From a virus (lineage: Duplodnaviria; Heunggongvirae; Uroviricota; Caudoviricetes), in the IMG/VR virus record IMGVR_UViG_2529293138_000006, positions 1 through 18,936 of that record: a DNA stretch of 18,936 bases; one strand, written 5' to 3'. Shown here piece after piece: positions 1 to 18,936 of this stretch. The stretch's first letter is position 1; every line of letters begins with the position of its first letter. The notes beneath the pieces were generated by a model. It had not been told where the DNA came from, did no database searches, and saw only the letters and a list, made by a program, of their open reading frames with translations. Position numbers and translations under genes: made by a program.

Positions 1-1143
1 CTATGCTGTTTTGATATCTACGATAATCCAGTCTTTACCACGATCATCATTGTATCGGTCGGTCATTTTTCTGGATTTATGGCCTAACAACTTTTGCGTA
101 TCCAGACCCTGTTCCCGATATAACCGTTCTGACAGAGATCGCTGTTCATGAAATGTGGGCGCAGTTCCTTGCTCCCATTTTATGCCACATTTTTCCCGGG
201 CCTTTTTAAAAGCCGTTGTCAGAGTATTTGCAGAAACCTGGTCTCCTCTGTTTGCTTGAGAGGTAGTGTGACGGTAATGGACCAGATATTTACTAACAAC
301 AGCATCCCTGCACTGAGATATAACTTCACGAAGGGTAATATTCAGAGCATCGCATTTCAGGTTAAGCGGAATAGCAAGTTTTGAACCGGTTTTTTCCTGA
401 GTAATGTGCAACATGTCGTCCCATATATCAGAGAATTTCAAATTGCAGATATCGCCTAAACGTTGTCCAGTAACAAGAGCAAGTAGCATGCCGCATTTTA
501 AATAGGGCTGCCGTCTGCTTACGCTTTCAAATATTGCCTGCCATTCGAGCAGTGACAATCTTTGGCGGTTTACTCGATTTCGCGGTTGTTTTGTTGCCTG
601 CGCTGGGTTAAATCCTGGCGGAACATGTCCTGCGTGTTGTGCTTCTTTGAAGACGTCGATCAACACCATTCTCACGACTTGCGCCATCCTGTTATGACCT
701 TCAGCCTTTACAGCATCAATTATTTCGGCAATATCAAGTGCGGTAATATCCTTGAGGTGTTGCATTCCACAATGCTCACGGAAAAGACGAATGGGTTTGC
801 CTTTTTGCCGATAGGAGTTGGGTCTTAGTTCATTATGTTGCAGCCTGTCCTCCTGGATAGAAATATATTTATCAAGCCATTCTGTCACCGTAATGTCTGA
901 GCGCCTGCCTTTCATTCTTTCCAGACGCTCATTGACGCTTAATATTTGTCTGGTACGTTGTTCAGCAATAATGGTATTTGCTTCAGTAGCAACTTGTTTT
1001 GCTTCATTCTCATCAGTTCCTAAGCTATGAAAACGACCGGATAGTGGATGTTTGTATTGCCAATATACCTTTCCGGTTCGCTTATCTAATTTGCAATATA
1101 AATTGGGTATAGAGATTTTGTGAGATCGGGGTCTAGCAGCCAT
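1..1143 (-). CDS. int: Phage integrase, tyrosine recombinase of the lambda Int family (380 aa)
   Basis: Full-length ORF with the stop codon at window position 1-3. C-terminal motifs typical of lambda-family integrases are visible in the translation (LALVTGQRLGDICNLKFSDI, TFHEQRSLSERLY, LLGHKS). Overlaps the excisionase by 11 nt. Not identical to lambda Int. Confidence 0.9.
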   Translation of the reverse strand: MAARPRSHKISIPNLYCKLDKRTGKVYWQYKHPLSGRFHSLGTDENEAKQVATEANTIIAEQRTRQILSVNERLERMKGRRSDITVTEWLDKYISIQEDRLQHNELRPNSYRQKGKPIRLFREHCGMQHLKDITALDIAEIIDAVKAEGHNRMAQVVRMVLIDVFKEAQHAGHVPPGFNPAQATKQPRNRVNRQRLSLLEWQAIFESVSRRQPYLKCGMLLALVTGQRLGDICNLKFSDIWDDMLHITQEKTGSKLAIPLNLKCDALNITLREVISQCRDAVVSKYLVHYRHTTSQANRGDQVSANTLTTAFKKAREKCGIKWEQGTAPTFHEQRSLSERLYREQGLDTQKLLGHKSRKMTDRYNDDRGKDWIIVDIKTA

Positions 1144-1369
1144 CAGCGATTATCCGTTGGAGTTTTGGGTTTGCGTTTATTGGGAGTTGCGGTTCTGCAA
1201 GCGTTCCTACAAAACGGGAATTTCGGTCAATCATCCAGTAGCGACCAACTTTTATAGCGGGTGGGGCCATCATTTTCCCTTGCGCGTATTTTTTCAGAAC
1301 TCGCTCACTTGGTGCTAAGTCCCCAAATTCTTCTTTAGCCCAGTCCTGTAAAGTGATTAGTCGAGACAT
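1133..1369 (-). CDS. xis: Excisionase-like small DNA-binding protein (78 aa)
   Basis: Small ORF immediately upstream of and overlapping int, the usual xis position. Strong SD (GGAGGA) about 4 nt before the ATG. Identity to a specific excisionase family is inferred from position and size only. Confidence 0.7.
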   Translation of the reverse strand: MSRLITLQDWAKEEFGDLAPSERVLKKYAQGKMMAPPAIKVGRYWMIDRNSRFVGTLAEPQLPINANPKLQRIIADGC

Positions 1370-1508
1370 TTGTCCTCCTCTTAGCTGCTGAGGGAGTTTG
1401 TGACCGATATATCTGACATGATATTAAGCTCATGGCAGGTACATCTCTTGACTGGTCATAGAGATAAATTTAATGCTGAGAAATGCAGTATTGAATTTAT
1501 CAATTTTT

Positions 1509-1748
1509 CTATTTCCTGCGTATGGCACGTAACTTCTTAATGTGTTCTGCCGTTTCGATCTCTTCTGCTATCCGATCTGCATCAGCTTTATTCACAGGTT
1601 CAAAGTCATGATTAAAGCGGAACATGCTGGCGATACATGTTCTGCCTTTTCGGATGTAGTGAACTTTGTTGTGGGTAGAACGCAGGATTTTGCAGGGAGT
1701 GCCGTGGTGGTCGACGTACCAGGTGTTAGGAAAAATGATTCTGAACAT
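1509..1748 (-). CDS. Hypothetical protein (79 aa) in the int-proximal accessory region
   Basis: ORF with a GAGGTG SD 5 nt upstream of the ATG; same orientation as neighbouring early-left genes. Not recognised. Confidence 0.5.
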   Translation of the reverse strand: MFRIIFPNTWYVDHHGTPCKILRSTHNKVHYIRKGRTCIASMFRFNHDFEPVNKADADRIAEEIETAEHIKKLRAIRRK

Positions 1749-1795
1749 TTTTACACCTCAGTTGGACGATGTTGAAATTTGCTGCTTTGAGGCCA

Positions 1796-2014
1796 TCACA
1801 ATCCCCATTGTTTGTTCTTAAGTTCGATCTCCTCCTGGCAACTTGCACAAGTCCGACAACCCTGAACGACCAGGCGTCTTCGCTCATCTATCGGATCGCC
1901 ACACTCACAACAATGAGTGGCAGATACAGTCTGGTAGTTCAGACGACGCATTTTTATTGCTGTATAGCGCTGTAATTCTTCGATTTCTGATGCTGAATCA
2001 ATGATGTCTGCCAT
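1796..2014 (-). CDS. DksA/TraR-family C4 zinc-finger protein, lambda Orf73-like (72 aa)
   Basis: Four-cysteine motif CxxC-N17-CxxC (CECGDPIDERRRLVVQGCRTCASC) in a ~70 aa protein, characteristic of TraR/DksA-type RNA polymerase-binding proteins carried by lambdoid phages. Confidence 0.7.
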   Translation of the reverse strand: MADIIDSASEIEELQRYTAIKMRRLNYQTVSATHCCECGDPIDERRRLVVQGCRTCASCQEEIELKNKQWGL

Positions 2015-2111
2015 CTTCCATTAATCCCTGAATTGTTGGTTAATACGCTTGAGGGTGAATGCGAATAATAAAAAGGAGCCTGTAGCTCCCTGATGATTTT
2101 GCTTTTCATGT

Positions 2112-2327
2112 TCACCGTTCCTTAAAGACGCCGTTTAACATGCCGATTGCCAGACTTAAGTGAGTCGGTGTGAATCCCATCAGCGTTACCGTTTCGCGGT
2201 GCTTCTTCAGTACGCTACGGCAAATGTCATCGACGTTTTTATCCGGAAACTGCTGTCTGGCTTTTTTGATTTCAGAATTAGCCTGACGGGCAATACTGCG
2301 AAGGGCGTTTTCTTGCTGAGGTGTCAT
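2112..2327 (-). CDS. Lambda orf61-like hypothetical protein
   Basis: Translation from the internal Met (MTPQQENALRSIARQANSEIKKAR...) matches my recollection of lambda orf61. The six-frame ORF extends to 2393, but the upstream 22 codons look non-genuine. Start choice is uncertain. Confidence 0.6.
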   Translation of the reverse strand: MTPQQENALRSIARQANSEIKKARQQFPDKNVDDICRSVLKKHRETVTLMGFTPTHLSLAIGMLNGVFKER

Positions 2328-2403
2328 TGAACAAGTCCCATGTCGGCAAGCATAAGCACACAGAATATGAAGCCCGCTGCCAGAAAAATGCATTCAGTGG
2401 TTG

Positions 2404-17629: not shown

Positions 17630-17660
17630 AGCTGCCCATATCGATGGGCAACTCATGCAA

Positions 17661-17954
17661 TTATTGTGAGCAATACACACGCGCTTCCAGCGGAGTATAA
17701 ATGCCTAAAGTAATAAAACCGAGCAATCCATTTACGAATGTTTGCTGGGTTTCTGTTTTAACAACATTTTCTGCGCCGCCACAAATTTTGGCTGCATCAA
17801 CAGTTTTCTCCTGTCCAATTCCCGAAACGAAGAAATGATGGGTGATGGTTTCCTTTGGTGTTACTGCTGTCGGTTTGTTTCCAACAGTAAACGTCTGTTG
17901 AGCACATCCTGTAATAAGCATTGCCAGAGCGGCAGAAAACAACATTTTTTTCAT
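17661..17954 (-). CDS. bor: Bor lipoprotein (serum-resistance outer membrane lipoprotein), 97 aa
   Basis: Translation from MKKMLFSAALAMLITGCAQQTFTVGNKPTAVTPKETITHHFFVSGIGQEKTVDAAKICGGAENVVKTETQQTFVNGLLGFITLGIYTPLEARVYCSQ matches lambda Bor; lipobox LITGC. Confidence 0.88.
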   Translation of the reverse strand: MKKMLFSAALAMLITGCAQQTFTVGNKPTAVTPKETITHHFFVSGIGQEKTVDAAKICGGAENVVKTETQQTFVNGLLGFITLGIYTPLEARVYCSQ

Positions 17955-18119
17955 CTTATTATCCTGCATTGTTAAAAACGGCAGAATCCTATGTGACAAC
18001 AATTAAACGATAGTTAAATGGATTGATGAAAATTAAAACTATATAGGTGGATGCTCAGCCTATTGGAGGAGGGGGCACTCAGAATCCTGTGGAATGAAAT
18101 AAACCGCTCTTTCTGTCCA

Positions 18120-18344
18120 TTACCCTTTTAGCTGCGCTGTATCGTCGCCGTATTCCCGCATTAACCATGACCGTAGCCCGACGGGGAATTCCTTCTGCGT
18201 GAGTGTGCGGGAATAATCAAAAACGATGCACACCGGGTTTTTACCGCGTTTATGGTTCGCGGGGGTGTCCCTCATGCTCGCCAGTCCTGTGCGGGGGTGG
18301 AAGAAACAGGACGTGTATTCAGGTCTGTGTGACTGTGGTCGCAA
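18120..18344 (-). CDS. Hypothetical ORF (74 aa) between bor and cos; may be non-coding
   Basis: ORF only, with Arg/Pro/His-rich composition; the region resembles the lambda right-end non-coding sequence. Confidence 0.3.
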   Translation of the reverse strand: MRPQSHRPEYTSCFFHPRTGLASMRDTPANHKRGKNPVCIVFDYSRTLTQKEFPVGLRSWLMREYGDDTAQLKG

Positions 18345-18429
18345 GACTTTTGTCGTTCAGCTATTAAATCCCATTACGAAGTAGACCAGAACGGCCAACG
18401 GGTCCTTTCCGGCGATCCGACAGGTTACG

Positions 18430-18441
18430 GGGCGGCGACCT
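18430..18441. other. cosN cohesive-end site (GGGCGGCGACCT), with cosQ upstream and cosB between cosN and nu1
   Basis: Exact match to the lambda 12 nt cohesive end, preceded by ...CCGACAGGTTACG and followed by CGCGGGTTTTCGCTATTTATGAAAATTTTCCGG..., i.e. the lambda right-end/left-end junction as found in a prophage or concatemer. Confidence 0.85.
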
Positions 18442-18618
18442 CGCGGGTTTTCGCTATTTATGAAAATTTTCCGGTTTAAGGCGTTTCCGTTCTTCTTCGT
18501 CGTAACTTAATGTTTTTATTTAAAATACCCCCTGAAAAGAAAGGAAACGACAGGTGCTGAAAACGAACTTTTGGGCCTTTGTCGTTTCCTTTCTCTGTTT
18601 TTGGCCGTGGAATGAACA

Positions 18619-18936
18619 ATGGAAGTCAACAAAAAGCAGCTGGCTGACATTTTCGGTGCGAGTATCCGTACCATTCAGAACTGGCAGGAACAGGGAATGC
18701 CCGTTCTGCGAGGCGGTGGCAAGGGTAATGAGGTGCTTTATGACTCTGCCGCCGTTATAAAATGGTATGCCGAAAGGGATGCTGAAATTGAGAACGAAAA
18801 GCTGCGCCGGGAGGTTGAAGAACTGCGCCAGGCCAGCGAGGCAGATCTCCAGCCAGGGACTATTGAGTACGAACGCCATCGACTTACGCGTGCGCAGGCC
18901 GACGCACAGGAGCTGAAGAATGCCAGAGACTCAGCT
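18619..18936 (+). CDS. nu1: Terminase small subunit Nu1 (N-terminal 106 codons; continues beyond the window)
   Basis: Translation [106 protein letters not shown] matches lambda Nu1; lies ~190 bp downstream of cosN as in lambda. Confidence 0.92.

Follow-up and report, generated by a model that had tools for sequence, protein, structure and literature searches.

The closest described relatives of the DNA analysed here are the phages 4A7 (type of the genus Bievrevirus of the International Committee on Taxonomy of Viruses, ICTV), PhiR47_2, 1W, 3W and Perceval, together with phage 21 (OL657228, genus Jouyvirus), lambda, and DLP12 (qsr') of Escherichia coli K-12. The gene order of the 4A7 group runs from icd', int21 and xis through the Red genes, a KilR-type kil, no N gene, cargo beside cI, and cro and cII genes of the YdaS and YdaT types, and onward through a hybrid O, lambda-type P and ren, emrE-ylcJ-ybcK, ybcN-to-ylcG, a PF06530 Q, a moron and S21-R21-Rz. 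Here we analyse the 18,936-nt stretch of viral record IMGVR_UViG_2529293138_000006 (hereafter the window, whose positions are used throughout) and find the same order in it. Based on the comparisons below, we propose that the window is very probably the left arm, together with the region for early functions, regulation and lysis, of a temperate lambdoid prophage inserted at the 3' end of icd in MHI813, an E. coli strain that makes Shiga toxin (STEC).

This prophage is built by recombination from modules in circulation among lambda-family phages. Its int and xis are those of phage 21, its Red genes are of the lambda/21 type, a hybrid O stands with lambda-type P and ren, and both emrE-ylcJ-ybcK and ybcN-to-ylcG are of the DLP12 type. 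Joined to these are a private immunity region (an S24-type CI, a YdaS-type Cro, a YdaT-type CII analogue and no N), a PF06530 Q, the pinholin and signal-anchor-release (SAR) endolysin of phage 21, lambda-type spanins, and cos and Nu1 of lambda specificity. What is new in it is the combination of known modules; as a kind of element it is not new.

Mosaic composition and insertion site

The window is identical (100%) to about positions 14823-33758 of the 33760-nt contig AFDZ01000011.1 (GCA_000225205.2). Accession AFDZ00000000 is E. coli STEC MHI813, serotype O8:H19, with stx1d, from bovine faeces, described in a paper that does not discuss this prophage (PMC3491183); a literature search on the PhiR phages gave nothing relevant. 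The right edge of the window lies inside nu1, 2 nt short of the contig end. The left edge is the stop codon of int, so that the window does begin at the 3' end of this gene, as had been thought, and the gene is complete within it. The attachment sites had been expected beyond the window: on the left, the end of icd lies 113 bp from int on the contig, with rluE, nudJ and mnmA further out, and attR is not on the contig. The TTCCCCAAAA repeats lie between icd and int. Integration at icd is here combined with an Int and Xis of phage 21; the int-xis DNA is 99.8% identical to that of phage 21, which makes specific an earlier call of int and xis as simply non-lambda. The Int protein is 60% identical to IntE of e14 and 35% identical to lambda Int.

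We measured mosaic coverage as the fraction of the window in BLASTN blocks of at least 80% identity. By this measure the share is 41% for phage 21, 38% for DLP12, 30% for lambda and 0% for HK022, and 65% for lambda, phage 21 and DLP12 taken together. Lambda homology is found in four main blocks at 95-97% (1819-4593, 8325-9761, 17168-18008 and 18430-18936, the last of which corresponds to lambda nt 1-508) and, with one short 82% match, totals 5.7 kb. Phage 21 matches 1-1752 (98.9%), 1792-4593, 8325-9761 and 16458-18271, and DLP12 matches 9575-11978, 12721-14429, 16420-18008 and 18400-18936 at 94-97.5%. None of the three matches 4594-8324 (kil, immunity and the N-terminal part of O), 11979-12720, 14430-15357, 15434-16419 or 18272-18399. 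The original prediction, which described lambda-type blocks alternating with non-lambda ones and proposed an alignment with lambda, phage 21, HK022 and DLP12, is borne out by these data: the mosaic is real. HK022 has no part in it, as it gave three fragments at 69-78% and no block of at least 80% nucleotide identity.

The best matches to the window as a whole are a prophage at icd in Sx181 (85% coverage, 97% identity) and phage PhiR47_2 (77%, 96.8%), which was deposited as a phage with E. coli C as host; phages 4A7, 1W, 3W and Perceval each cover 72-73%. These five phages share the architecture of the window gene for gene and are 95-97% identical to it over 72-77% of its length. They differ from it in the DNA-binding half of cI together with cro (6701-7238), in the cargo beside cI, in the slot after ybcK (an esterase gene in 4A7), in the Q allele (of the 127-aa quuD type in 4A7) and in the cargo between Q and S (a porin gene in 4A7). 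Genera are demarcated by the ICTV at a nucleotide identity of at least 70% over the whole genome. The product of coverage and identity between the window and 4A7 (74.8% x 94.65%) is 70.8%, right at this line and for the window only, which is half a genome.

With phage 21 the window shares int/xis, the icd site, the Red genes (96%), the C-terminal part of O with P and ren (96%), and S21-R21-Rz-bor (95%). What phage 21 has of its own, and the window does not, are N, nutL and nutR, cIII, imm21, a lambda-like nin region, a 162-aa Q21 and tRNA genes after pR'; no tRNA gene was found in the window. The window has neither imm21 nor the specificity of cos21 and Nu1-21, and no match to phage 21 exists in 4594-8324. 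Lambda and the window have in common the overall gene order and exo-bet-gam, orf60a and orf63, the C-terminal part of O, P, ren, Rz/Rz1, bor, cos and Nu1, with proteins 90-100% identical, and they differ in int and the att site, immunity, N, cIII, the rex genes, the nin genes, Q, S and R. For the left arm, the products of orf63 and orf60a are 90-97% identical to those of lambda, and Exo (97.8%), Bet (99.6%) and Gam (96.9%) are all full length.

Taken from left to right, the gene order int-xis, orf63-orf60a-exo-bet-gam-kil, the cI-cro-cII position, O-P-ren, emrE-ylcJ-ybcK, ybcN-ninE-ybcO-rusA-ylcG-Q, S-R-Rz-Rz1-bor and cos-nu1 is present. This functional order is lambda-like, and the near-identical DNA blocks would allow recombination with lambda. 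At the right end, the cos/nu1 DNA is 97.4% identical to lambda nt 1-508 and 65.7% identical to phage 21, and because of this difference the packaging specificity should be that of lambda. cosQ, the cohesive end and cosB are intact, cosQ is placed 30 nt upstream of the cohesive end, just as it is annotated in phage 21, and residues 1-106 of Nu1 are 100% identical to lambda Nu1 and 98% identical to NohD of DLP12. The lysis cassette is 94.9% identical to phage 21 at the DNA level; of the lysis genes previously called 21-type, S and R are so and Rz/Rz1 are lambda-type (99% at the protein level).

Integrity of the prophage and alternative explanations

Each of the 22 genes for which lambda or K-12 offers a reference has its full length and lacks internal stops, and no transposase-like open reading frame (ORF) or insertion sequence (IS) element was found in the window, in agreement with the original prediction that no recognised gene carries a premature stop or an IS. 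Three blemishes are present: a stop-loss in ydaT, a one-codon deletion in O and the 5'-truncated ORF109. The first of these is the real problem in the ORF at the cII position, which had been suspected as the one exception. The codon at 7776-7778 is TGG in the window and TGA in Sx181, PhiR47_2 and two near-identical prophages (loci L010 and L012), so that the YdaT homologue has 247 aa against the usual 179; the 68 extra codons overlap O, and the same base change turns residue 2 of O from Thr to Ala. In O itself, a 3-nt deletion at 7944 removes Gly57 relative to the homologues. Both changes, the stop-loss and the missing Gly57, are found in each of 7 contigs read, which come from at least 4 samples; they are therefore lineage markers rather than sequencing errors. 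Lambda CII acts in establishing lysogeny, so even a null ydaT allele should spare induction of the prophage, and the stop-loss would at most impair the establishment of lysogeny. YdaT, which is functionally equivalent to CII, ends in a flexible C-terminal tail that follows the tetramerisation helix (PMC9986795). Judged from its sequence, the visible half of the prophage is expected to carry no lesion that would block induction.

Several points weigh against reading the window as part of a functional temperate prophage. The structural genes and attR of MHI813 are not on the contig, which ends inside nu1. Prophages with the same modules are often decayed, through deletions (L009, L011, L013, L025 and L026) or IS elements (L027 and L029). 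Two lineage-specific changes are present, the ydaT stop-loss and the O Gly57 loss. With neither N nor a put-like RNA, that early transcription reaches Q, xis and int is something we infer, and the promoters, operators and terminators are assigned from a reading of the letters. Neither an N-type nor a put-type early antitermination system was found in the window; because the same layout is seen in 4A7 and PhiR47_2, both deposited as phages, the missing N characterises the subgroup rather than being a lesion.

Among the alternatives, the one that survives best is that the window is the remaining part of a defective prophage that has lost its head and tail region to deletion or IS disruption and makes no particles. 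Large deletions at three of the eight places shown with ORF187 (L009, L011 and L013), and structural genes that are deleted or hit by IS elements at four of the six places shown with a cos-proximal ORF (L025, L026, L027 and L029), argue for it, as does the stop of the contig inside nu1, and the ydaT stop-loss and O codon loss could be early neutral decay. A contig break in sequence common to several lambdoid prophages is, however, the usual outcome of short reads, and no essential gene is broken in 18.9 kb, whereas DLP12 over the same span has IS3, IS5 and a 6-kb deletion. Moreover, in the closest relatives (L010 and L012, at 99.75-99.92%) the genes from nu1 through A, W, B, C and D follow without a break into E, which lies at the edge of the locus, and L024 and L028, also relatives, extend over the tail genes as far as G, again at the locus edge. 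We therefore regard a defective prophage as possible though somewhat doubtful, and lean slightly towards a complete structural half in MHI813.

The decayed carriers (L009 and L011, both from CP055888.1, with L013, L025-L027 and L029), several of them at icd, form a series of decay stages. Examples are a junction of int-to-orf60a with Q-ORF187-DUF2441-S, a nu1-J fusion and IS elements in FII/Z.

A second alternative is that the window is an undamaged ortholog of DLP12, of the same lineage and at the same locus. DLP12 shares with the window ren-emrE-ylcJ-ybcK (97.5%), ylcH-ybcN-ninE-ybcO-rusA-ylcG (94.2%), essD-rrrD-rzpD-borD (94.9%), cos-nohD (97%) and the late leader with its hairpin. Its lysis and bor proteins match those of the window at 100% (EssD), 99.4% (RrrD), 96% (rzpD product), 98% (rzoD product) and 91% (BorD; 90.7%, as compared to 91.8% for lambda Bor). 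The scar in DLP12 also fits this idea. The K-12 pseudogenes exoD and peaD match 2721-3026 and 9178-9576 of the window and abut in K-12 (L002 4378/4377), so that their junction is a single, clean 6.15-kb deletion of exo'-bet-gam-kil-immunity-O-'P (3027-9177); IS3 in renD maps to position 9576. From this abutment, DLP12 looks like a phage of the present design after the loss of 3027-9177 and the gain of IS3 (in ren) and IS5 (in nmpC). Nevertheless, DLP12 lies at argU with IntD, to which the Int of the window, at icd, gives a weak local match (28% over 163 aa). Its quuD, nmpC, ybcL-ybcM and ybcV-ybcW are absent from the window, which has ORF187, ORF66 and a DUF2441 gene in place of nmpC and a Q that is 49% identical to QuuD. 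Finally, coverage of IS-free DLP12 (from attL to nohD) is 50% for the window, 59% for 4A7 and 70% for the Sx181 prophage. An orthologous DLP12 is thus exceedingly improbable; it is refuted for the locus and the integrase, and shared ancestry of single modules remains. Accordingly, the resemblance to DLP12 that had been noted stands for the four blocks from ren to ybcK, ybcN to ylcG, S to bor and cos to nu1, and fails for the site, Int, Q, the cargo between Q and S, the ybcL-ybcM slot and immunity. The window is a mosaic lambdoid whose visible half has no inactivating lesion in an essential gene, but as a functional relative of DLP12 it is preceded by closer viral ones, 4A7 and PhiR47_2.

A third alternative is the notion, raised with the original prediction, that the mosaic is an assembly chimera joining pieces of different prophages from one genome: the block boundaries are sharp and MHI813 is a 2011-era draft from a strain with several lambdoid prophages (PMC3491183), but the independent Logan assembly ERR10434963 reproduces 1-17224 at 100%, GCA_023880885.1 and one more assembly reproduce 4737-18936 with every junction in it at 99.92% and 99.75%, and each junction recurs in other genomes and phages, so that with three other assemblies in agreement a chimera is hardly credible and effectively refuted.

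Immunity, early transcription and replication

The features of the lambdoid prophage described here are collected in Table 1. By analogy to lambda, CI bound at the palindromes of OL and OR would silence the prophage, with cI co-transcribed with ORF87 and ORF147. Self-cleavage of CI, stimulated by RecA, would free pL (kil, gam, bet, exo and on to xis and int) and pR (cro, ydaT, O, P and on to Q). The O protein would bind the five iterons inside its own gene and recruit P and DnaB; Q would let polymerase from a promoter at about 15.3 kb pass a hairpin at about 15.42 kb and go on to transcribe ORF66, S, R, Rz and the packaging genes, and terminase would cut at the lambda-type cos.

Table 1. Features of the window, with positions, strand and the basis of each assignment.
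Feature	Position	Strand	Basis and remarks
int, tyrosine integrase, phage 21 type, 380 aa, complete	1..1143	-	Pfam Arm-DNA-bind_1 and Phage_integrase
xis, excisionase, 78 aa	1133..1369	-	Pfam Exc; phage 21 match
DUF4222 gene	1509-1748	-	Pfam; length equal in Sx181
TraR/DksA zinc-finger gene	1796-2014	-	Pfam; length equal in Sx181
orf61-like gene	2112-2393	-	
orf63/DUF1382	2404-2595	-	
orf60a/DUF1317	2568-2750	-	
exo (lambda Red module)	2747-3427	-	Pfam YqaJ
bet (lambda Red module)	3424-4209	-	Pfam RecT
gam (lambda Red module)	4215-4511	-	Pfam Gam
kil, KilR-like FtsZ inhibitor, 68 aa	4587..4793	-	KilR gene call on source contig
Candidate pL/OL	about 5071-5125	-	TTGACG, 17-nt spacer, TTAAAT; GTTGTT/AACAAC half-sites
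Predicted strong intrinsic terminator closing the cI operon	5268-5245	-	9-bp stem, 6 GC pairs
ORF147, cargo downstream of cI (rexAB slot)	5343-5786	-	Coiled coil and C-terminal membrane helix
ORF87, cargo downstream of cI (rexAB slot)	5799-6062	-	
cI, LexA-like repressor, 229 aa	6145..6834	-	Helix-turn-helix and S24 peptidase (Pfam)
Putative OR/pR	6876..6911	+	Palindrome ATGGTTGTTGACTAAAAACAACCAT; -35 TTGACT, 17-nt spacer, TAATCT
cro analogue, YdaS family, 76 aa	6939..7169	+	Pfam YdaS_toxin 4e-17; P22_Cro more weakly
cII analogue (ydaT), YdaT family, 247 aa	7239..7982	+	Pfam YdaT_toxin
O, replication initiator, 338 aa	7775..8791	+	Pfam Phage_rep_O
ori	8213..8356	+	Five palindromic 17-nt iterons TTACCYGAAWSAGGTAA at 8213, 8242, 8261, 8285 and 8308; then A/T-rich repeat
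P	8788-9489	+	Protein 98.7% identical to lambda
ren	9486-9788	+	Protein 90% identical to lambda
emrE	9856-10188	+	EmrE 99.1% protein identity to DLP12
ylcJ	10236-10385	+	
ybcK, large serine recombinase, 508 aa	10443-11969	+	YbcK 97.8% protein identity to DLP12; Pfam
ORF109, 5'-truncated Bro-N/P22_AR_C gene	12082-12411	+	Pfam P22_AR_C domain alone; ORF109/ORF83 are phrog_7640 and phrog_9613
ORF83	12471-12722	+	See ORF109
ybcN, ninE, ybcO, rusA, ylcG (DLP12-type nin block)	12893..14297	+	94.2% DNA identity to DLP12
Q antiterminator, 114 aa	14383..14727	+	Pfam PF06530, 1e-45
ORF187, membrane-anchored helical protein, convergent with Q	14735..15298	-	phrog_31367
Candidate late promoter pR'	15313-15342	+	TTCATA, 18-nt spacer, TATGAT
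Putative tR'-like hairpin	about 15413-15441	+	GCCCGC/GCGGGT and T-rich tail
ORF66, first ORF past the tR'-like hairpin	15453..15653	+	phrog_10826
ORF182, DUF2441 protein	15643..16191	-	Pfam DUF2441
S21 pinholin	16459-16674	+	Dual start MKSM; 100% protein identity to EssD
R21 SAR endolysin	16674-17171	+	99.4% protein identity to RrrD
Rz	17168-17629	+	99.3% protein identity to lambda
Rz1	17388-17570	+	98.3% protein identity to lambda
bor, serum-resistance lipoprotein, 97 aa	17661..17954	-	Pfam Lambda_Bor
cos	18400..18600	+	cosQ GGGTCCT 18400-18406; 12-nt cohesive end GGGCGGCGACCT 18430-18441; lambda-type cosB
nu1, terminase small subunit, first 106 of 181 codons	18619..18936	+	Cut by contig end

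The repressor carries the motifs of a cleavable CI, namely Ala98-Gly99, Ser142 in GDSM and Lys179 in VKRL, and on this ground, and by analogy, it should cleave itself upon SOS induction. Its start at 6834 was chosen by the 229-aa length of its relatives, and its likeness to the CI of 4A7 is limited to the C-terminal domain (88.9%). The perfect palindrome at 6876-6900 overlaps the -35 element of the putative pR (6883-6911) and has a near-copy at the candidate pL; GTTGTT/AACAAC half-sites cluster at 5054-5120 and 6824-6933. For the YdaT operator TTGATTN6AATCAA (PMC9986795), all matches in the window have two mismatches, and their number, five as compared to about two expected by chance, is a marginal excess that 9 of 200 shuffles also reached; a first pattern with 9-nt spacing gave matches at chance level. 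One of the two-mismatch matches lies at 6911, near pR.

ORF87 and ORF147 are co-oriented with cI and lie upstream of the predicted cI terminator. Their families (phrog_4231 and phrog_3556) have no function assigned in either case, and PADLOC gave no hit to them. In the same slot PhiR47_2 has GevT/GevA and 4A7 has an ASCH gene and a hypothetical gene, and homology to both phages stops at 5268, which is a mosaic boundary. The slot beside cI is probably a variable one for exclusion or defence genes.

Between the candidate pL and kil there is a leader of about 270 nt (4794-5125, minus strand). No minus-strand ORF of at least 50 aa exists there, and the small ORFs present are not N-like; a 31-aa Arg-rich mini-ORF (4902-4997) was considered as N and set aside, as it has a TTG start and no obvious Shine-Dalgarno sequence. 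Rfam gave no hit to a put-like or nut-like RNA on the whole window at E up to 0.1, and shuffled sequence folds just as well as the pL leader (z = -0.06). The kil gene has a longer 96-aa ORF that reaches 4877, and NCBIfam NF008465 matches residues 29-96 of it.

The O protein is 67% identical to lambda O overall, with a non-lambda N-terminal half and a lambda-type C-terminal half. Lambda DNA homology begins at 8325, directly after the last iteron (the iterons span 8213-8324), and this point corresponds to lambda 39119, just past lambda iteron 4. O consists of two domains, an iteron-binding half and a P-binding half, and the switch from private to lambda sequence falls at the boundary between them.

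Accessory genes and the Q-to-S cargo

The emrE-ylcJ-ybcK DNA is 97.5% identical to DLP12. With YbcK the nin region adds a recombinase to the tyrosine integrase and the excisionase that the phage has as well. Beyond it, where DLP12 has ybcL-ybcM, the window has ORF109 and ORF83. The ORF109 homologue of L007 is a 204-aa protein with both Bro-N and P22_AR_C, and because homology to this form begins only at 12095, ORF109 is a recombination scar. The truncated form is common enough to have a PHROG family of its own, phrog_7640. In the nin block, which had been called non-lambda from ybcN through to Q, the proteins from ybcN to ylcG are 89-98% identical to those of DLP12 and all full length; this part is DLP12-type, and Q is not of the quuD type.

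Q has no similarity to lambda Q, and 7 nt separate its end from the stop codon of the convergent ORF187, which occupies the slot of nmpC in DLP12. A 5-bp GC hairpin (14728-14743) lies between the two stop codons. In one prophage of Enterobacter and one of E. coli, genes for ORF187 homologues (61-72% identity) likewise stand tail-to-tail with a PF06530 Q gene, such that an ORF187-type gene is found 1-16 nt from a Q of 114-116 aa in all three cases (window 14383-15298; L019 4001-4913; L020 4001-4922); the two other prophages have different lysis cassettes and no DUF2441 gene. An AlphaFold2 model of ORF187 with a predicted local distance difference test (pLDDT) score of 85 suggests an N-terminal membrane helix and a helical bundle. 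Pfam, NCBIfam and PADLOC gave no hit to ORF187, Pfam on 30 family members gave nothing significant, nor did a PDB sequence search or Foldseek against PDB and BFVD, and tblastn against deposited phages found no match. The family is small, with 10 clusters at 90% identity and 57 representatives at 50% among 1.84 billion, and ORF187 itself is present in 227 blocks of the assembly collection.

The 78-nt leader (15358-15433) that follows the candidate pR' matches, at 84% identity, the sequence ahead of essD in DLP12 and 4A7, and the hairpin is identical. Directly before the ATG of ORF66 lies a G9 tract (15444-15452), which has one more G in L010 and three more in L012. This tract could be prone to slippage and might affect translation initiation of ORF66.

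The slot between tR' and S is where Shiga toxin phages hold stx. In the window it carries ORF182 in reverse orientation, with no evident gene for a partner (B-subunit). ORF182 is confidently assigned to DUF2441, a family that belongs to the ADP-ribosyltransferase (ART) clan of Pfam (PMC7955679) and that, with BC2332, is placed in the ART superfamily of SCOP (d.166.1.6; PMC3000352); by these classifications it would have an ART-superfamily fold. An AlphaFold2 model (pLDDT 89) gave 2aua (BC2332) as the best Foldseek match (E 4e-7), and its similarity to ART folds (cholera, heat-labile (LT) and pertussis toxins, RES and Arr) was weak, with E of 0.1-2 for the ART toxins. Invariant residues of the DUF2441 family include R11, S46, S88, E142 and E167. 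PADLOC gave no hit to ORF182, and in the defence libraries no credible PADLOC hit was found for any cargo ORF or its family. Deposited phages contain no near match to ORF182 (at most 38% protein identity). As a unit, the Q-to-S cargo is absent at a coverage of at least 80% from 5,426 complete E. coli genomes, among which the best coverage, 22%, spans just Q and the conserved leader. We tentatively suggest, while holding it rather unlikely, that ORF187 and the DUF2441 gene may be new functions expressed in the lysogen, such as a superinfection-exclusion or anti-phage effector or a host-modifying enzyme.

For general phage biology the prophage matters little, as it is one more case of lambdoid genomes being shuffled from a shared stock of modules. 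The "K-12 genes" emrE, ybcK and rusA and the DLP12 lysis cassette are also seen to travel on a phage design that is still active, as 4A7 and PhiR47_2 had shown already. More specifically, the comparison provides a clean map of what DLP12 has lost, namely the counterpart of window 3027-9177 along with intact copies of ren and the porin gene. Lastly, the two uncharacterised cargo families and the variable slot beside cI are candidates for screens of anti-phage or host-modifying activity.

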